Assembly (NCBI GenBank): GCA_049516755.1
Contig: JBEKSU010000015.1
Location: 490 to 24,489, forward strand
DNA from: Verrucomicrobiota bacterium
Lineage (GTDB): Bacteria; Verrucomicrobiota; Verrucomicrobiia; Limisphaerales; UBA11358
Length of the DNA: 24,000 bases
Direction of reading: 5' to 3'
In this document: positions 1 to 18,193 of the stretch, in pieces
Position numbering within the stretch: position 1 is the stretch's first letter
How the letters are laid out: each line of letters opens with the position of its first letter
Made by a program: the position numbers and the translations under genes
The notes under the pieces: generated by a model
The model's input: the letters and a program-made list of their open reading frames with translations, nothing else
What the model was told of the DNA's origin: nothing
Database searches by the model: none

Positions 1-1871
1 TCGGGAATTTCATGCACCCGCTCGACATACACCCGGCCGGTGTTCGTGAAGAACATGAGATAATCGTGCGTGCTGGCGGTGAAAAGGTGCTCGATGAAAT
101 CATTGTCCTCATCCGTAGCGCCTTCCTTCGTCGTCATGCCGATGACGCCCTTGCCGCCGCGGCGCTGGGCGCGATAGGAGCTGACGTTTGTGCGCTTGAG
201 GAGGCCGTTGTGCGTGAGCGTGATGATGACGCCTTCGTTGGCGATGAGGTCTTCGATGTTGATCTCGCCTTCGTCGGGCATGAGGTCGGTCAGGCGCGGG
301 GTGGCGTATTTTGCTTTGATCGCCTGCAATTCGGCCTTGATGATGGTGAACACGCGGGCTTCCTTTGCCAGAATGTCCATCAAATCCTCAATGCGCTTGA
401 GCAATTCCTTGTATTCGCCCTCGACCTTGTCAATTTCCAGGCCGGTCAACTGGTACAGGCGCAATTCCAAAATGGCGTCCACCTGCCGTTCGGTCAGCGC
501 ATACCGGCCCTTGGTCAGGCGTGACTCGTTGCGAATCAAAATGGACCAGCGTTCCACCTGCTTTTGGGTCCACTCGAACGCCAGCAGCTTGACCCGGGCT
601 TCCTCGCGCGTCTTGCTGCCGCGGATGATCTTGATGAAATCGTCAAGGTTCGCCAGCGCGATGAGATAACCCTCGAGAATTTCCGCGCGTTCCTCGGCCT
701 TCTTCAACTGGAACCGCGTGCGGCGCAACACGACCTCGCGGCGGTGCTCGATGTAGCAATTGATGAGTTCCTTCAGCCCGAGCGTCTTGGGCCGGCCGTG
801 GTCAATCGCCAGCATGTTGACGGCAAAACTCGATTCCAGCGCGGTCTGCTTGTAAAGATTGTTGATGACGACCTTGGCGATGGCGTCGCGCTTGAGTTCA
901 ACCACCACGCGCGTGTTTTCATCCGATTCGTCGCGGATGGCCGTGATTTCGGTGAAGCCCGGCGTTTTTTCGTTCACCAGTTCGGCCACGCGCTCGACGA
1001 GCACCGCGCGGTTGACGTTGTAGGGAATTTCCGTGATGACGATCTGTTCCTTGCCGCCCTTGAGCTGTTCAATGCCGACCTTGCCGCGGACCTTGATGCT
1101 GCCGCGGCCCGTCGTGAAGTATTCCTTGATGACTTCCAGCCCGCACACCATGCAGCCGGTCGGGAAGTCCGGGCCTTTGATGAATTTCATCAGTCCCTTG
1201 ACCGTGATGTTCGGGTCGTCAATCTGCGCGCAGACGCCGTCAATGATTTCACCCAGATTGTGCGGCGCCATGTTCGTGGCCATGCCGACGGCGATTCCCG
1301 TGCCGCCATTGACGAGCAGATTGGGAAACGCGGCGGGGAAAACGGTCGGCTCGGTGCGGGTTTCGTCGTAGTTGGGAACGAAATCCACCGTGTCCTGATC
1401 CATGTCCTCCATCAATACCGCGCCGAGATGCGCGAGCCGCGCCTCGGTGTACCGCATGGACGCCGGCGGGTCGCCTTCGACGGAACCGAAATTGCCCTGC
1501 CCGTCCACCAGCCGTTCGCGCATGGCCCACGGCTGCGCCATGTGGACGAGCGTCGGGTAAATCGCCTGGTCGCCGTGGGGATGGTAATTGCCCATCGTTT
1601 CGCCGACGATTTTGGCGCACTTGAGATGCTTGCGGTTCGGCATCACGCCGAGATCGTTCATCGCGTAAAGAATACGCCGCTGCGAAGGCTTGAGACCATC
1701 GCGCGCATCCGGCAGCGCGCGCGAAATGATCACCGACATCGAGTAATCAAGAAACGAGTTCTTGATTTCATCGGCGACATTGATCTTGGCGATTTTTTCC
1801 CCGGAGGCGAACAACGGCGTGTTGATCACCGGCAGGTCATTTGAAGGTTTGGGTTTTGGTTCGTCGGGCAT
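1..1871 (-). CDS. gyrA: DNA gyrase subunit A, N-terminal ~623 codons (3' end runs off the window)
   Basis: Absent from the supplied ORF track because it has no stop inside the window. My reverse-strand translation from ATG 1871..1869 reads MPDEPKPKPSNDLPVINTPLFASGEKIAKINVADEIKNSFLDYSMSVIISRALPDARDGLKPSQRRILYAMNDLG...GNYHPHGDQAIYPTLVHMAQPW...DGQGNFGSVEGDPPASMRYTEARL, the canonical GyrA N-terminal and active-site region. The frame stays open to position 1. Plus-strand ORFs 12..524 and 564..1844 are its antisense shadows. Confidence 0.95.
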   Translation of the reverse strand, partial: MPDEPKPKPSNDLPVINTPLFASGEKIAKINVADEIKNSFLDYSMSVIISRALPDARDGLKPSQRRILYAMNDLGVMPNRKHLKCAKIVGETMGNYHPHGDQAIYPTLVHMAQPWAMRERLVDGQGNFGSVEGDPPASMRYTEARLAHLGAVLMEDMDQDTVDFVPNYDETRTEPTVFPAAFPNLLVNGGTGIAVGMATNMAPHNLGEIIDGVCAQIDDPNITVKGLMKFIKGPDFPTGCMVCGLEVIKEYFTTGRGSIKVRGKVGIEQLKGGKEQIVITEIPYNVNRAVLVERVAELVNEKTPGFTEITAIRDESDENTRVVVELKRDAIAKVVINNLYKQTALESSFAVNMLAIDHGRPKTLGLKELINCYIEHRREVVLRRTRFQLKKAEERAEILEGYLIALANLDDFIKIIRGSKTREEARVKLLAFEWTQKQVERWSILIRNESRLTKGRYALTERQVDAILELRLYQLTGLEIDKVEGEYKELLKRIEDLMDILAKEARVFTIIKAELQAIKAKYATPRLTDLMPDEGEINIEDLIANEGVIITLTHNGLLKRTNVSSYRAQRRGGKGVIGMTTKEGATDEDNDFIEHLFTASTHDYLMFFTNTGRVYVERVHEIP

Positions 1872-1876
1872 AAAAA

Positions 1877-2326
1877 TTATTTGGCTGCGGCGATGTCCTC
1901 GATTTCACCCGGAATCAAAGCGATGCCGAGCTGTTTACAAGCGGCGCGAATCCGTTTATCGGTTGCGGACATTGTACCGCTGCGCTGCAAATCACAAGTT
2001 GCGACGTGCAAAGCGTCCAATGTCCGTAGTGGGACACGCGGATGACACGCCACTTGAATCGCGCGGGCGCGTTCGAGCACTCTGCGGTTCAGCGGGAACA
2101 ACACAATGAGTTCGCTTTCAACCATGGGAAAAAAATTCGCCATGGCACTTTCGCGCTCGGGTGGCGTAATGTCCCCCGCGCGCTCTTTGAACAGCAGCGC
2201 GGCACAAACTTCTGTCAAAGCCAGTTCCGACGATACAAAGCTGTGCCCTGACAGTTGGCGGCCAAACCATTCGCTGTCGGCTTCACGCACGAGCAACTTC
2301 ACGATGATGGCTGTGTCGAGATACAT
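1877..2326 (-). CDS. vapC: PIN-domain ribonuclease toxin, VapC family (type II TA toxin)
   Basis: The track ORF 1877..2332 begins at TTG. ATG 2326..2324 overlaps the upstream stop as TGATG, a typical TA translational coupling. MYLDTAIIVKLL..., ...SSELALTEV..., ...LDALHVATC... and ...SATDKRI... match the spaced acidic residues of a PIN fold. Size is about 149 aa. Confidence 0.85.
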   Translation of the reverse strand: MYLDTAIIVKLLVREADSEWFGRQLSGHSFVSSELALTEVCAALLFKERAGDITPPERESAMANFFPMVESELIVLFPLNRRVLERARAIQVACHPRVPLRTLDALHVATCDLQRSGTMSATDKRIRAACKQLGIALIPGEIEDIAAAK

Positions 2327-2652
2327 CACCAACCTCGCGCATCGCGGTCCAGATTGACGGCTTCCTCGGCCGACATGCCGCGATGAATCGGCTGCTTCAT
2401 CAGGTAATCGCCCATGCCTTCAAAAACTTTTCGAGGCTTGGCTTCCGCAACACTGACCAATTTGGCCTTCGGTTTGCCGTCGCTGGTGATGGTGATTTCC
2501 TGTCCGGCGGCCACCAATTCCAGCAGTGCCGACAAATGTGCCTTGGCCGCGCGGACGCTGATGACTTCACCAATGCCCGGTGCAACAGTGACTTCTTTGA
2601 GCACCGCCGATCGCGGCTTGTGCGCCGGGTATTTGAGCGTTTTTACTTTCAT
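2326..2652 (-). CDS. vapB: Phd/YefM-family antitoxin (VapB-like partner of the PIN toxin)
   Basis: 108-aa ORF. The core VISVRAAKAHLSALLELVAAGQEITITSDGKPKAKLVSV is the Phd/YefM prevent-host-death signature. It lies directly upstream of the PIN gene and overlaps it. The N-terminal ~16-28 aa are atypical, so GTG 2604 is an alternative start. Confidence 0.8.
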   Translation of the reverse strand: MKVKTLKYPAHKPRSAVLKEVTVAPGIGEVISVRAAKAHLSALLELVAAGQEITITSDGKPKAKLVSVAEAKPRKVFEGMGDYLMKQPIHRGMSAEEAVNLDRDARGW

Positions 2653-2658
2653 TCATCC

Positions 2659-2688
2659 AATGTAGTCACGCGTGACTACATTTGTCAA
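2659..2688 (-). promoter_or_regulatory. Candidate vapBC promoter with overlapping palindromic operator
   Basis: The minus strand reads TTGACA (2688..2683), an 18-nt spacer, then TACATT (2664..2659). The spacer plus -10 box form a 24-nt perfect palindrome, AATGTAGTCACGCGTGACTACATT (2682..2659). The -10 box ends 7 nt before ATG 2652, so the transcript may be leaderless. Confidence 0.55.
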
Positions 2689-2692
2689 CAAT

Positions 2693-5314
<2,622 letters not shown>

Positions 5315-5491
5315 TCAAAAAAACACCCCAAAACACAATGAATTGTGGCTCCGCCGGCCCGCTTATGCCGTATATTGGGGCAACCCTAAATTGCGACAAT
5401 CGTTGATTTTGTGGAAATATGACGCCGGATTTTGCCATCGTTTTGCCCTGAATCCGCTTGCATTGCTGCGCAGCAACTTTAGCTTCCGCGC

Positions 5492-8452
<2,961 letters not shown>

Positions 8453-9828: not shown

Positions 9829-10704
9829 TTATCGATTTGCCGCCTCCGGAACGCCACCAAGTCGCGACGAGCTTTCCCACGCAATCATCGCGCGTTTACG
9901 GATTTGTCCCCAGTGATAATCTCCAATTACACCGGTTTCGCGAATGACGCGATGGCACGGGATAAGGTAAGCCAGCTGGTTTTGGCCGACGGCCGTTCCC
10001 ACGGCGCGTGACGCGGCCGGTTTGCCAATCGCGATTGCCAGTCGTCCGTAACTGGTAAGCGTGCCGGGCCGGACTTGCAGCAACGCCCGCCAGACGCGCA
10101 CCTGAAACGGCGTGCCGCGAACGAACGCGCGCAACGGAGCGCCAGGCTCCGACCCGGCGTGTTGGTTTATGGCGTGGCGTGCAAAAATATTTGCAGCGAG
10201 TTGCCTGACAACAGAATGGTCGCACCTGAATTTTGCCTGCGGCCAATCTTCTTGCAGCGCCGCCAGAGCGGCTTTTTCATTTTCAGTTTCGGTGAATGAG
10301 AGATGGCAGATGCCGCGAGGACTTTCGGCAATCAAACATTTTCCAAACGGGCTGTCCGCGAAACCGAATGAAATGGTCCGGCCGGCGCCGCCGGATTTCA
10401 ATTCGCCGGGCGACGCGGCTTCGAGATTCACGCAAAGGTCATGCAACCGGCCCGGCCCGGAAAGGCCGGACTCCAGCGCGACATCCAGAATGCTGTTGCC
10501 GTCGCGGAGCAATTCCTTCGCGTGCGCGAGCGTGAGGCATTGGAGAAAATCCTTCGGTGTGACACCCGCCCACGTCGAGAACAGGCGATGAAAATGGAAC
10601 TGGCTCAAGCCCGCGCGTCCGGCCAGGGTTGTCAAATCCGGTTGGTCGGTGTGGCGCTCATCCAGAAAACGGATGATTTGAGCGATGCGTTCGTAATCAT
10701 TCAC
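9829..10704 (-). CDS. Bifunctional AraC-type HTH regulator / methylated-DNA-protein-cysteine methyltransferase (Ada/Ogt-like)
   Basis: The N-terminal half has an AraC HTH (LSQFHFHRLFSTWAGVTPKDFL...). The C-terminal half has the Ogt active site LIPCHRVI. The track ORF starts at 10935 but runs through a hairpin repeat and the DUF559 3' end. In-frame GTG 10704 (VNDYERIAQIIRFL) or GTG 10740 are the plausible starts. Confidence 0.8.
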   Translation of the reverse strand: MNDYERIAQIIRFLDERHTDQPDLTTLAGRAGLSQFHFHRLFSTWAGVTPKDFLQCLTLAHAKELLRDGNSILDVALESGLSGPGRLHDLCVNLEAASPGELKSGGAGRTISFGFADSPFGKCLIAESPRGICHLSFTETENEKAALAALQEDWPQAKFRCDHSVVRQLAANIFARHAINQHAGSEPGAPLRAFVRGTPFQVRVWRALLQVRPGTLTSYGRLAIAIGKPAASRAVGTAVGQNQLAYLIPCHRVIRETGVIGDYHWGQIRKRAMIAWESSSRLGGVPEAANR

Positions 10705-10767
10705 GTCCCCAATCTGCCACGGGATGAAGGCCGCTCCCACCCGATTCTTGCGGCAAAATTTTGTTTT

Positions 10768-10792
10768 CCTCTCCCCGCCAAACGGGGAGAGG
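10768..10792. repeat. Hairpin repeat H1: CCTCTCCCC-GCCAAAC-GGGGAGAGG
   Basis: Perfect 9-bp stem and 7-nt loop, abutting the DUF559 stop codon (10794..10796). Confidence 0.9.
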
Positions 10793-10793
10793 G

Positions 10794-11237
10794 TCAGGGC
10801 GAGGGGTTCGTTTTCTTTTCTACGAATTTGATTTTTTTCACTTCCGGAGGGACAAACCGCTGCTCCTCCGCATTTTTCATCACTTGCACGCAGCCCGTCC
10901 GGCGTTGCAACGCATCCCAGATGGCCAGCAAACATCCTTCACGATTCTTCTGCCACTCATGATTCCAAAATCGCAATTCCTCAATATCCTGTTTTTTCAG
11001 AAAAGCGCTACGCGCCGCATCGAGTTGCATCTGCTCCGGCAAGCCGTGTTGAAAACCGTCCAGTTCCACATCCAACCGCGCCGCCGCGCAATAGAAATCC
11101 AAAATATAAATTCCCGCTGGATGCTGTCGGCGAAATTTGAATCCGGCGAAACGGTGGCTTCGCAACGCGCGCCACAATTCCTTTTCGTCGTCGGTCTGGT
11201 CGCGACGAAGCTGGCGGGCGGTTTGGATTGAGTTCAC
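10794..11237 (-). CDS. DUF559 endonuclease-domain protein (Vsr/restriction-endonuclease-like fold)
   Basis: ARQLRRDQTDDEKELWRALRSHRFAGFKFRRQHPAGIYILDFYCAAARLDVELDGFQH...LRFWNHEW matches the DUF559 pattern. GTG start at 11237. The C-terminal ~35 aa form a non-conserved tail. Confidence 0.85.
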   Translation of the reverse strand: MNSIQTARQLRRDQTDDEKELWRALRSHRFAGFKFRRQHPAGIYILDFYCAAARLDVELDGFQHGLPEQMQLDAARSAFLKKQDIEELRFWNHEWQKNREGCLLAIWDALQRRTGCVQVMKNAEEQRFVPPEVKKIKFVEKKTNPSP

Positions 11238-11343: not shown

Positions 11344-12459
11344 TTATTTCGCGGTCGCCAGTTCCACTTCCGTTCCGCAATTCCCTTTTCCGCAATCGCA
11401 ACCGCCTTCTTCCTGATCGCTGAAACCATGGCTGTCCCAGCTTGGGTCAAGGCCGAGGTCCTTGAGCATTTGCAGGTCTTTCTCGACGGATTGATTGAGC
11501 GTGGTGAGATAATTGCCGACCATCAGCGCGCTCGCGCCAGCCATGAAAATCAGGCTTTGCGCGTCGCGCAAATTCACCGTGCGGCCGCCGGCGACCATGA
11601 TTTCCTGCCGCGACAAAATGAACCGGAAGCACGCGATGGTCTTTAAAATTTCCAGGACGGGCAGGGGATCGTTTTTTTCGAAGGGCGTGCCGGGAATCGG
11701 GTTGAGAATGTTGACGGGCACGACTTTCGCGCCGATTTGCTTCAGCGAAAACGCGAGGTCGCAGCGATCTTCGCGCGTCTCGCCCATGCCGATGATGCCG
11801 CCGGAACAAATTTTGATGCCGGCCTTTTTCAGATAACCGATGGTTTCGAGGCGGTCATCGTAGGTGTGCGTGGTGCAGGTCTTGGGGAAAAAGCGGCGCG
11901 AGCTTTCGAGGTTGTGACCGTAGCACTCGACGCCGGCTTCCTTGAGCCGGTCGGCCACGCGCTGGCTTTTGATGATGCCGAGCGAGACGTCCGGTCGCGT
12001 TTTGCCGCCGGCTTTCAACTCGCGCACGCGGGCGCAAACCTCATCGAGCATCGGGCCTTCATTGAGGCCTTTCCAGGCGGCGACCAGTCCCACGGCCGTC
12101 ACGCGGTTTCGGTTGGCCTCCTCGGCGGCTTCGGCCACGGGTTCGGGATCAACGAACCCGTATTTGGGCGAGCCGGTCTGGTAAAACGATGATTGCGCGC
12201 AGAAACTGCAATTTTCCGGGCACGCGCCGGCCTTGGCGTTGACGATGGAACAGAGGTGGATTTTGTTGCCCTTGAATTGTTCCCGGATGCGGTTCGCCCA
12301 CGAGAGCAGATCGAAAATGTCGGAGCGGTTTTCGAGATTGAAGAGCCACAACGCCTCGTCACGGGAAATCCGGCCGCCATTTAAAATCCGTTCGCCGAGC
12401 CGGGCGATTTGCGTTCGGGGGTTTGCGTCAACCAGTTTAACAGTCATGGTTGACAGCAT
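11344..12459 (-). CDS. bioB: Biotin synthase (radical SAM)
   Basis: CPENCSFCAQS is the radical-SAM CxxxCxxC motif, and the protein has a BioB-like layout throughout. An unusual Cys-rich C-terminal tail reads EEGGCDCGKGNCGTEVELATAK. ATG 12447 is an alternative, possibly leaderless, start. Confidence 0.93.
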   Translation of the reverse strand: MLSTMTVKLVDANPRTQIARLGERILNGGRISRDEALWLFNLENRSDIFDLLSWANRIREQFKGNKIHLCSIVNAKAGACPENCSFCAQSSFYQTGSPKYGFVDPEPVAEAAEEANRNRVTAVGLVAAWKGLNEGPMLDEVCARVRELKAGGKTRPDVSLGIIKSQRVADRLKEAGVECYGHNLESSRRFFPKTCTTHTYDDRLETIGYLKKAGIKICSGGIIGMGETREDRCDLAFSLKQIGAKVVPVNILNPIPGTPFEKNDPLPVLEILKTIACFRFILSRQEIMVAGGRTVNLRDAQSLIFMAGASALMVGNYLTTLNQSVEKDLQMLKDLGLDPSWDSHGFSDQEEGGCDCGKGNCGTEVELATAK

Positions 12460-14153: not shown

Positions 14154-15809
14154 TCATGACCGGTTCAGCGCGCTCAACACGGCGCGCACGGACGCCAGCT
14201 CGATGTTCGTGTCCACGCCCGCGCCCCAGCGCGTGCGCCCATCGGCGTGCTTGATTTGAATGTAGGCAATCGCCGCCGCCGCCTCGCCGGAACCCAGGGC
14301 GTGCTCGCTATAATTGACGATTTCGAAACGCGGCACCCCGGCCTTGCCGAAACCGTGGACCAGCGCGGCAAGCGGGCCATTGCCTTCACCGGAAAGCTCG
14401 ACCGGCTTGCCGTCGCGCAAAAATATTGCGCGGCATTTGACGACGCCGTTTTTGCTCTCGGTTTCAAAGCGCTTGAGCTGCCACGGCTGGGAGCGTTCGA
14501 TGTATTCGCGCCAGAACATCTTTTTCAATTCGGCACCGCTGACTTCGCGGCCGAGCTTGTCCACCTCGTCGTTGGCAATCGGCCCGAACTCGCGCTGCAT
14601 GTCCTTGGGCAATTCGATGCCGAATTCGCTTTCGAGCAGGTACGCCACGCCGCCTTTGCCGGACTGGCTGTTGACGCGGATGACCTCGCGGTATTCGCGC
14701 CCGATGTCCGCCGGGTCAATCGTGAGATAGGGCACGTCCCAATGCGTGCGGCCATTTTCCTTCCATTCATTCAAACCTTTCTTGATGGCGTCCTGGTGCG
14801 AGCCGCTGAACGCCGTGAAGACCAGTTCGCCCGCGTAAGGCTGGCGCGGCGGCACCGTCATGCCCGTGCAACGTTCGTAAACGTCGATAATGGAATTGAG
14901 GTCCGAGAAATCCAGCTTCGGATCGATGCCGTGCTGGTAAAGGTTCAACGCCACGGTGACGAGGTCGAGGTTGCCCGTGCGCTCGCCGTTGCCGAAGAGC
15001 GTGCCTTCCACGCGATCCGCGCCCGCGAGCAGGCCCAGTTCCGTCGCCGCCACGCCGGTGCAGCGGTCATTGTGCGTGTGCAAACTGACAATGAGCGACT
15101 CGCGGTTTTTGATGTTCCGGCAAATCCATTCAATCTGGTCGGCATAGACATTCGGCATCGCCACCTCGACGGTGTCCGGCAGGTTCAAAATCATTTTTCT
15201 CTTCGGCGTCGGTCGCCACACGTCCATGACCGCCTCGGAAATTTCCTTCGCAAATTCAACCTCCGTCGCGCTGAAACTTTCCGGCGAATACTGGAGCATG
15301 ACTTCCGTGCCCTTGAGACGCGGCAACCGGTCCTGGATCCATTGCGCGCCGCGCACGGCGACCTCGACAATTTCCTCCTTGGATTTGCCGAACACGACGC
15401 GGCGTTGGGCGGGGGAGGTCGAGTTGTAAAGATGAATAATGGCCTTCTTCGCGCCGACCAGCGATTCGACCGTGCGTTCGATCAACTCTTCCCGCGCCTG
15501 CACGAGCACCTGGAGCCAAACGTCGGCCGGTACGCGTTTTTCCTCGATGAGCCGGCGGTTGAACGCGAACTCGGTGTTTGATGCGGACGGGAAACCGACT
15601 TCGATTTCCTTGAAGCCGCATTTCACGAGCGTCTGGAACAGCTCAAGTTTCTGGCCGACATTCATGGGCACGGCGAGCGCCTGATTGCCGTCGCGCAAAT
15701 CCACGCTGCACCAGACGGGCGCATGGGTGAGGACGCGGTTGGGCCACTGCCGGTCGGGCAAACTGACCGGCGGGAACGGACGATATTTTTTCGACGGTTG
15801 TTTATGCAT
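14154..15809 (-). CDS. leuA: 2-isopropylmalate synthase, long form (LeuA type 2)
   Basis: KKYRPFPPVSLPDRQWP...VWCSVDLRDGNQAL...HTHNDRCTGVA plus a C-terminal regulatory domain. The track ORF starts at 15920, but homologues as I recall them begin shortly before the YRPF motif, so ATG 15809 (MHKQPSKKYRPF) is preferred. Confidence 0.92.
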   Translation of the reverse strand: MHKQPSKKYRPFPPVSLPDRQWPNRVLTHAPVWCSVDLRDGNQALAVPMNVGQKLELFQTLVKCGFKEIEVGFPSASNTEFAFNRRLIEEKRVPADVWLQVLVQAREELIERTVESLVGAKKAIIHLYNSTSPAQRRVVFGKSKEEIVEVAVRGAQWIQDRLPRLKGTEVMLQYSPESFSATEVEFAKEISEAVMDVWRPTPKRKMILNLPDTVEVAMPNVYADQIEWICRNIKNRESLIVSLHTHNDRCTGVAATELGLLAGADRVEGTLFGNGERTGNLDLVTVALNLYQHGIDPKLDFSDLNSIIDVYERCTGMTVPPRQPYAGELVFTAFSGSHQDAIKKGLNEWKENGRTHWDVPYLTIDPADIGREYREVIRVNSQSGKGGVAYLLESEFGIELPKDMQREFGPIANDEVDKLGREVSGAELKKMFWREYIERSQPWQLKRFETESKNGVVKCRAIFLRDGKPVELSGEGNGPLAALVHGFGKAGVPRFEIVNYSEHALGSGEAAAAIAYIQIKHADGRTRWGAGVDTNIELASVRAVLSALNRS

Positions 15810-15956
15810 AAATTCAGGCGTTGAAGGAATTAAACCACAGGTTCCGCAGACGGGACAAATGGATTGTTGGGTGAGCCGCTTCGTTCTGCCGCCCAATAAT
15901 CCAGCAATCCAATGATCCATCCATCCGGTTTTGCTGCTCTGTGTTCATTCGTGGTT

Positions 15957-17044: not shown

Positions 17045-18193
17045 TCACGGCACCGGCAGGAACCGCGTGCAGAATGGAAATGGAACTGCGACGGGCTGGC
17101 CGACTTGTGTCAGTTTGCCGGTGGCCCCATCCACGCGAAATACCACGGCGTTGTCGCTGTTGTGATTACTGCAAAGAATCCATTTACCCGTCGGGTCGAA
17201 CGTGAAGTTGCGCGGCCATTTGCCCTGTGAGGCGACCCGTTCCACCAGCGTGAGCTTGCCATTCTTTTGATTGATGGCGAACACGGCGATGCTGTCGTTT
17301 CCACGATTCGAGCCGTAGAGGAACCGGCCGTTGGGATGAATCAACAGCTCGGCGCAGGTGTTCGTGCCCTTGAATCCCTCGGGCAGCGTGGAAATGGTCT
17401 GGAATTCCTTGAGGGAACCCTTTTCGGCGTTCCATTTGAAGCCGGTGACGGTGCAGCCCATCTCGTTAATCACGTAAACCCATTTGCCGTTGGAATCAAA
17501 CTTGACGTGACGCGGTCCGGAACCGGGCTTGACGGTGGCGAACGGCGGGTCATTCGGGGTGAGCGAGCCGTCCTGCTCGTTGAACCGGTACACAAACACC
17601 TTGTCGAGGCCGAGATCGGCGACCAGCGCGAACCGGTTGCTTGGATCCACGACGATCGAGTGGGCGAACGGGCGCGTCTGCCGTTCCGGATCCACGCTGC
17701 GTCCGGTGTGTTGTTCAAAGGCGGTCTTTGCGCCCAGCGTATAATCGGGGTTGATGGTCAGCACGGAAATGTTGCCGCCCTGGTAATTGGCCACGAGCGC
17801 GTAATGGCCGGTCTTGTCGAGGGTGATGTAACTCGGGTCCGCGCCGCCGGACGGTTTCTGGTTGAGCAGGGTCAGCCGGCCGGTCTTCGGGTCAATGACA
17901 TACGCGCTGATCGCGCCGGTCGTCTTGCTCGAGTTGCAGGTGTAAAGATGTCTGCCGTCAGGATGGATTACAAAATACGCCGGTTCCACGGCCTCCGTGA
18001 TGAATTGCGGCTTCGTCAATGCACCGGTGTCGGTGTCGAAATGCGCCAGCGAAAATCCGATGCCGGGTCCGGACCGGTGCGTCCCGAAATAGACGAACGT
18101 ATCGGCGGCGCTGGCTGACAACGCGACCAGGGCGAGCAGGAGAATCAGCGAAGTTGGGCGGGCGGCGGGGTTTGGGTTTGCATTCATAGGCAT
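17045..18193 (-). CDS. Lactonase-family 7-bladed beta-propeller protein (6-phosphogluconolactonase-like) with signal peptide
   Basis: SLILLLALVALSASAADTFVYFGT..., then repeated blade motifs (HPDGRHLY, DKTGHYALVANYQGGNISV, DPSNRFALVADLGLDKVFVY, HPNGRFLYGSNRG, DPTGKWILCSNH) typical of the Lactonase family. Confidence 0.8.
   Translation of the reverse strand: MPMNANPNPAARPTSLILLLALVALSASAADTFVYFGTHRSGPGIGFSLAHFDTDTGALTKPQFITEAVEPAYFVIHPDGRHLYTCNSSKTTGAISAYVIDPKTGRLTLLNQKPSGGADPSYITLDKTGHYALVANYQGGNISVLTINPDYTLGAKTAFEQHTGRSVDPERQTRPFAHSIVVDPSNRFALVADLGLDKVFVYRFNEQDGSLTPNDPPFATVKPGSGPRHVKFDSNGKWVYVINEMGCTVTGFKWNAEKGSLKEFQTISTLPEGFKGTNTCAELLIHPNGRFLYGSNRGNDSIAVFAINQKNGKLTLVERVASQGKWPRNFTFDPTGKWILCSNHNSDNAVVFRVDGATGKLTQVGQPVAVPFPFCTRFLPVP

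Follow-up and report, generated by a model that had tools for sequence, protein, structure and literature searches.

The gyrase genes gyrB and gyrA of a Verrucomicrobiota bacterium (order Limisphaerales; contig JBEKSU010000015.1) are separated by a small type II toxin–antitoxin (TA) pair, 'vapB' and 'vapC'. The locus was analyzed in a stretch of 24,000 nucleotides (nt), referred to here as the window. All coordinates are positions in the window, and the gene order is read on the minus strand. gyrB (2693–5224, minus strand) encodes a long-form protein of 843 amino acids (aa) with DNA_gyraseB, Toprim, HATPase_c and GyrB_C domains (NF011501, 1058 bits), and ends with the TAA at 2695–2693. After a gap of 40 nt (2692–2653) follows the antitoxin gene vapB (2326–2652, minus strand; 108 aa), running from the ATG at 2652 to the TGA at 2328–2326. 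The toxin gene vapC (1877–2326, minus strand; 149 aa) lies directly downstream, an order that is kept in all related loci. Its ATG (2326–2324) has one base, an A, in common with the vapB stop, giving TGATG; alternative in-frame starts are a GTG at 2329 and a TTG at 2332. The vapC stop (TAA, 1879–1877) is followed by TTTTT (1872–1876, minus strand), which constitutes the entire spacer in front of the gyrA ATG at 1871–1869. The 5′ part of gyrA (3–1871, minus strand) scores 861 bits against NF004043 for the 623 aa inside the window. The gene leaves the window at its start and reaches the contig end, and its open frame on the contig counts 797 aa. The coordinates and spacing given in a preliminary description of this stretch (the 40-nt gap, TGATG, TAA followed by TTTTT, and the gyrA ATG) are exact to the base on the minus strand.

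The window lies on contig 15 of a metagenome-assembled genome (MAG) of 3.48 Mb in 328 contigs that is 89.8% complete, and no second copy of gyrA, gyrB, VapB, VapC or the operator described below was detected in it. An identical VapC protein is encoded on seven contigs of independent metagenome assemblies from peat and soil, each in the order gyrB–vapB–vapC–gyrA, and mis-assembly is therefore excluded.

The toxin matches the PIN family (PF01850, 2.9e-10). Its PIN acidic residues D4, E39, D104 and D123 (three Asp, one Glu) do not vary in sets of 11 and of 45 sequences. An AlphaFold2 model of VapC built from the 45-sequence alignment reached a mean predicted local distance difference test score (pLDDT) of 95.7. 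The best Foldseek matches of this model in PDB are PIN/VapC toxins, with template modeling (TM) scores of 0.63–0.81; fold matches are PAE0151 (2fe1, E 3e-5), Pyrococcus horikoshii VapC4, Mycobacterium tuberculosis VapC20 and FitB. The antitoxin has a conserved core, a conserved C-terminal tail (...RKVF.G...DRD.RGW) and an N-terminal basic extension of approximately 30 aa. Its sole family matches in Pfam and NCBIfam are PF02604 PhdYeFM_antitox (1.2e-10) and TIGR01552 (5e-11); an AbrB/SpoVT or ribbon–helix–helix (RHH) fold was not found. Judged by these matches, the antitoxin is of the Phd/YefM type and not of the classical VapB (AbrB or RHH) fold, and the pair is a Phd–PIN hybrid.

Both genes are constrained. 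In 18 pairs of sequences, the ratio of nonsynonymous to synonymous substitution rates (dN/dS) is 0.03–0.29 for the antitoxin and 0.06–0.26 for the toxin, similar to the adjacent gyrase segments. Since dN/dS is low in both genes, the pair is considered intact and under purifying selection. The preliminary description had proposed a genuine type II TA pair and had raised decay of the PIN gene as a possibility. The modeled PIN fold, the invariant catalytic residues and the purifying selection bear out the former and speak against the latter. The locus thus looks like a functional, selectively maintained type II TA cassette, with a predicted PIN/VapC-type RNase as toxin and a Phd/YefM-type antitoxin.

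A predicted promoter and operator in front of vapB

A scan of positions 1500–5600 on both strands (4.1 kb) yielded a single sigma-70-like site, TTGACA–18 nt–TACATT, with 10 of 12 matches to the consensus. The -35 hexamer TTGACA (2683–2688, minus strand) starts 4 nt past the gyrB stop, and the -10 hexamer TACATT (2659–2664, minus strand) is followed 6 nt downstream by the vapB ATG. The 18-nt spacer is filled by a perfect palindrome of 20 bp (2661–2680), which consists of two 9-nt arms around GC, overlaps the -10 hexamer and occurs as a single copy in the genome. Because the vapB ATG lies 6 nt past the -10 hexamer, the geometry implies a leaderless vapB mRNA, which would start at or beside the A of the ATG. 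The vapBC transcript of Mycobacterium smegmatis is reportedly leaderless, and autoregulated through inverted repeats. A passage on leaderlessness in a review deals with MazF and not with the transcripts of TA modules. The ends of the metagenome contigs with the exact VapC were inspected as possible marks of transcription start sites (TSSs), and none was informative.

The promoter geometry is largely kept at other gyrase-located cassettes, 28 out of 36 of which could be parsed automatically. Among these 28 loci, the -35 hexamer is TTGAC[AG] in 19 and TTGACN in 23, the spacer measures 17–18 nt in 27 and the -10 hexamer is TACATT in 22. The distance from the -10 hexamer to the start codon was scored by script as 6 nt in 20 loci and 5–7 nt in 26. 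For two loci, L001 and L034, the script gave 2 nt. By eye the distance in L001 is 6 nt, as the scored ATG is an out-of-frame one inside GGATGA; L034 has the same GGATGAATG stretch, and its distance is likewise corrected to 6 nt. At three loci (L038, L050 and L051), the gyrB stop TGA is itself part of the -35 sequence TTGAC, leaving zero intergenic bases.

The half-sites of the palindrome are kept as sequence, and changes occur in single arms without compensation, which fits a binding site for a protein better than an RNA hairpin. The palindrome is therefore a candidate operator that the Phd-type antitoxin, or the TA complex, would bind and through which the cassette would be autoregulated. Palindromes of the GTGGCCAC type also occur shortly upstream of vapB in relatives that are not located at gyrase genes, and the full promoter geometry recurs in a Lentisphaerae locus. 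The presence of related palindromes in front of non-gyrase vapB genes indicates that the operator is characteristic of the TA family and did not arise as an adaptation to gyrase. In three non-gyrase loci of Opitutales type (L070, L071 and L074), a GTGGCCAC-NN-GTGGCCAC palindrome reaches right up to the antitoxin ATG, so that their operator–promoter geometry differs from that of the gyrase-junction clade. The palindrome was also considered as an intrinsic terminator of gyrB. This was ruled out, as the palindrome is followed by no more than two U residues, was not called by the scan and has arms that vary without compensation.

The same scan revealed no terminator-like site on the minus strand between gyrB and gyrA and no promoter-like site inside vapC. 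A conserved gyrA promoter within the toxin gene is accordingly rejected as unlikely, the more so as conservation in the cassette is lowest at the 3′ end of vapC. The preliminary description had stated that neither a promoter for gyrA nor a terminator for vapC would find room outside the coding sequence, and had concluded that gyrA must be transcribed through the TA module. The first statement holds, as the stop codon and TTTTT lead straight to the gyrA ATG. The second is a reasonable reading of the sequence, with no internal promoter visible and the toxin intact, and co-transcription of gyrA through the cassette is likely.

Occurrence and history of the cassette

Forty relatives were searched with GyrA, taking 1.5 kb of flank each, and tblastn with the four proteins left 27 informative loci. 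The Phd–PIN pair is present between gyrB and gyrA in 11 of them, seven from the genus code of the window and four from other families of the order. The vapC stop precedes the gyrA ATG by 5–41 nt at the filled sites. The other 16 relatives have an empty site: their gyrB stop and gyrA ATG are 19–79 nt apart, and no remnant of a cassette is visible. Given this short spacer in relatives without it, the cassette is regarded as an insertion into the spacer of a tight gyrBA operon. U-rich runs precede the gyrA ATG at the empty sites too. No other type of cargo was found at the junction in the 27 relatives, so that unrelated genes in this position, which the preliminary description had envisaged, were not encountered.

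A scan with the VapC alignment of one genome per GTDB species added 26 further gyrB–TA–gyrA loci. In one locus (L038:3454-3809), an extra open frame of approximately 100–120 aa lies between vapC and gyrA, which means that the slot can hold a third gene. Five contigs (L037, L038, L044, L047 and L053) are labeled as Bifidobacterium, Binatia, Bifidobacteriaceae, Akkermansia or Proteobacteria. Their gyrB–TA–gyrA regions are Verrucomicrobia-like, and the contigs are probably mis-binned or mislabeled MAGs.

To estimate how widespread the arrangement is, a junction pattern was used that combines the end of gyrB (D-V/I-stop), 3–45 nt and the operator. Of 401 genomes sampled evenly across the order, 71 contain this pattern. 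The count is a rough lower bound, as this is a DNA pattern only, its matches were not each checked for gyrB and gyrA and variant operators are missed. Among high-quality genomes, 46 out of 250 have it. The matches cover 31 of 165 genera and at least 25 family codes of the order, and a reversed control pattern gave no match in the same 401 genomes. Outside the order, in the rest of the class and phylum, a looser pattern gave a single match among about 398 genomes, and the promoter is missing there. The cassette lineage is thus bound to this junction within one order of Verrucomicrobiota, probably Limisphaerales/Pedosphaerales. One MAG (G354) contains two junction-pattern matches of different sequence on separate contigs (C331 and C404), which points to a bin that mixes two strains or is contaminated, or to a duplication of the gyrase region.

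The history of the cassette was followed in a VapC tree of 88 rows and a tree of the gyrase flanks of 50 rows. All 36 gyrase-located VapC proteins fall in one clade, together with one locus of other context, with a support of 87 in the Shimodaira–Hasegawa-like approximate likelihood ratio test (SH-aLRT). The exception, L058:2665-3417, is sister to L028; neither gyrase gene lies within 3 kb of it, and it appears to have escaped from the slot. The sister groups of the clade share 41–47% identity with it and have cognate antitoxins and miscellaneous neighbors. These non-gyrase relatives were also considered for a location between essential genes, which they do not have: their neighbors are ankyrin, NamZ/beta-lactamase, FG-GAP and HtrA-like genes. 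Within the clade, at least five deep cassette types can be distinguished, four with SH-aLRT values of at least 98 and a fifth with 84 and a core supported at 93.

These types disagree sharply with the gyrase flanks. On the flank tree, the filled or empty state requires 13 changes, at least seven of which are forced by well-supported branches, and this number is no lower than with shuffled labels. Different cassette types also occur in near-identical flanks (e.g., L018 versus L021/L036, L016 versus L017, L039 versus L044 and L041 versus L053), where a DNA identity of 85–95% in gyrB and gyrA drops to 50–65% at sharp cassette edges. Synonymous divergence (dS) points the same way, the cassette exceeding the flanks in some pairs and falling below them in others: between L001 and L034 it is 0.9–1.4 in the cassette and 0.37 in the flanks, and between L001 and L003 it is 0.17–0.39 in the cassette and 0.43–0.51 in the flanks. 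In approximately unbiased (AU) tests on concatenated VapB and VapC, monophyly of the cassettes was rejected for six sister groups of the flank tree (p 6e-5 to 1e-59), the groups having been picked after the trees were seen. In view of this disagreement, cassettes appear to be exchanged or lost by recombination. The simplest reading would be repeated allele replacement, from empty to filled, from filled to empty and from type to type, by homologous recombination through the gyrase flanks.

Explanations for a cassette in the gyrase operon

Altogether, we consider it probable that an intact TA cassette with its own promoter and operator, belonging to one lineage, occupies the gyrB–gyrA junction across the order, is exchanged via its flanks and has gyrA transcribed through it. 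The antitoxin, alone or with the toxin, would bind the palindrome and thereby repress its own promoter; such operator binding and repression is the general paradigm of type II TA systems. Transcripts from the vapB ATG and read-through from gyrB would both run on into gyrA, because no terminator is seen and no space is left for a further promoter, and the TA promoter would feed gyrA when derepressed. Translation of gyrA would start 5 nt past the end of vapC, at a U-rich stretch that resembles the one at the empty sites. The conserved 3′ coding sequence of gyrB and 5′ coding sequence of gyrA would serve as homology arms, through which recombination could fill empty sites, swap cassette types or restore the empty site. 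Such movement through the arms would account for the patchy distribution and for deep types that do not follow the host. Regulation of gyrase would not depend on the cassette, as approximately 60% of the near relatives and most genomes of the order do without it.

Several points weigh against this explanation, besides the limits given above for the junction pattern and the AU tests. All genomes compared are MAGs, the trees come from quick searches on short alignments and the 'host' tree is that of the gyrase flanks themselves instead of genome-wide markers. A long-lived balanced polymorphism without lateral transfer could give a similar discordance, and an old balanced polymorphism may contribute to the one seen here. 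Furthermore, a PDB sequence search with the VapC profile gave no match to a solved structure, and no PADLOC model matches either cassette protein. Lastly, the read-through, the TSS and the leaderless start are read from the sequence.

The cassette could instead be locked in by position, persisting by vertical inheritance since its loss would have polar effects on the essential gyrA. The tight packing in all loci, with 5–41 nt between vapC and gyrA, the failure of the scan to find an independent gyrA promoter or terminator and the long residence of the lineage at this one site would all fit such an addiction. The preliminary description had accordingly held the TA pair to be hard to lose. This is contradicted by the clean empty sites of close relatives, by filled and empty states that are no more clustered than shuffled labels and by the different cassette types in near-identical flanks, all of which indicate that loss and replacement are frequent, and we regard addiction by position as very unlikely. 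Another alternative is that the cassette is defense cargo in a recombination hot spot, i.e., an abortive-infection or competition module whose types are kept by frequency-dependent selection, the gyrase junction being merely a convenient integration site. The deep types shuffled among hosts and the strong purifying selection on both genes would suit such a role, which is compatible with the explanation favored above and does not exclude it. However, PADLOC recognizes neither protein, there is no phage-related evidence and, unlike typical defense islands, the junction holds no other cargo type in the 27 relatives. Defense cargo is therefore rated as unlikely, yet as the least unlikely of the alternatives.

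The remaining alternatives give the cassette a function in gyrase expression. As a domesticated regulator, its promoter and operator would have been recruited to control the supply of GyrA or its ratio to GyrB, with the operator-bound complex gating read-through from gyrB and derepression boosting gyrA under stress. A near-consensus promoter does lie immediately upstream of an essential gene that has no promoter of its own, the site is kept over at least 25 family codes of the order and the mazEF–sigB locus of Staphylococcus aureus is an earlier case of a TA promoter that feeds the operon behind it (PMC3920265). On the other hand, 16 of the 27 near relatives and most genomes of the order lack the cassette, the same operator family stands upstream of non-gyrase relatives and the toxin has retained catalytic residues that a pure regulator would not need. 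Domestication hence seems distinctly improbable. Very doubtful, too, is a complete wiring into gyrase homeostasis, in which the operator-bound VapB–VapC complex would gate gyrA read-through and the leaderless promoter would add gyrA transcripts upon degradation of the antitoxin. If true, the GyrA:GyrB ratio, and hence supercoiling, would be a stress-responsive output of a TA switch, and the benefit for gyrase homeostasis would explain why one TA lineage keeps its exact site across a whole order.

Relation to known systems and genomic surroundings

Compared to known VapBC modules, such as M. tuberculosis VapBC20, VapBC of Shigella and the F plasmid, and Neisseria FitAB, the cassette shares the PIN fold with its acidic quartet, the antitoxin-first order of overlapping genes and, as predicted, a palindromic operator at the promoter. 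It differs from these modules in its Phd/YefM-type antitoxin, in the N-terminal basic extension of approximately 30 aa and in the lack of a sequence match to a solved structure. Moreover, its lineage keeps to a single chromosomal site, which lies within an essential operon. TA systems that target gyrase (CcdAB and ParDE) are linked to the present locus by position only. A gyrase poison with a CcdB or ParE/RelE fold was ruled out, as the toxin has only a PIN domain and the PIN RNase fold, and no sign of the toxin acting on gyrase was found.

Among documented chromosomal TA promoters that feed downstream genes, that of mazEF–sigB comes closest. In S. aureus, the promoter of this TA pair contributes to the expression of the downstream genes (PMC3920265). 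The likeness, which extends to Listeria and Bacillus, is that a chromosomal TA pair is linked to the genes behind it, a link that is predicted from sequence for the gyrase cassette. In mazEF–sigB, however, the TA pair precedes the operon, a weak terminator lies in between, MazF is the toxin and autoregulation is lacking, whereas the present cassette sits between two genes of an essential operon, has a predicted operator and is variably present. With variable cargo slots between core genes, the junction shares presence and absence of the cargo, allele replacement with sharp boundaries and discordance between cargo and flanks. It differs from such slots in being an intra-operon spacer of 19–79 nt between two essential genes that receives a single cargo lineage.

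The module itself is thus an ordinary Phd–PIN type II TA system; unusual are its fixed address in an essential operon, its persistence throughout an order and the swapping of its alleles. No publication describing a TA pair between gyrB and gyrA was found in a literature search, in agreement with the preliminary description, which was not aware of any account of this architecture. TA modules are usually viewed as scattered, mobile and context-free, while here one lineage is found order-wide in a single slot. The empty site and the cassette types, at least five in number, form a natural series of isogenic-like alleles for studying how TA modules spread via core-gene homology arms and whether cassette types exclude each other. 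The locus also offers a way to test whether an autoregulated TA promoter inside an essential operon alters the stoichiometry of an essential enzyme. Should the cassette be only a selfish passenger, it would be an unusual but ordinary TA locus. For annotation and for gyrB or gyrA phylogenetics in Verrucomicrobiota, caution is advisable, as the gene ends beside the slot may carry recombination tracts.

The surroundings of the locus in the window are ordinary housekeeping genes, and mobile-element genes are not near the cassette. Upstream of gyrB, a divergent gap (5225–5491) without a promoter-like site at the scan threshold separates it from gcvP (5492–8452, plus strand), which encodes a single-chain glycine dehydrogenase. 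A minus-strand open reading frame of 549 aa (5363–7012) overlaps gcvP, has no Pfam match and is probably spurious. Further along, an Ada-like fusion of an AraC-type helix-turn-helix and a 6-O-methylguanine DNA methyltransferase domain is encoded on the minus strand (9829–10935). Other genes in the window encode a biotin-synthase-like radical S-adenosylmethionine protein (11344–12459), LeuA (leuA, 14154–15920) and a 7-bladed lactonase (17045–18193).

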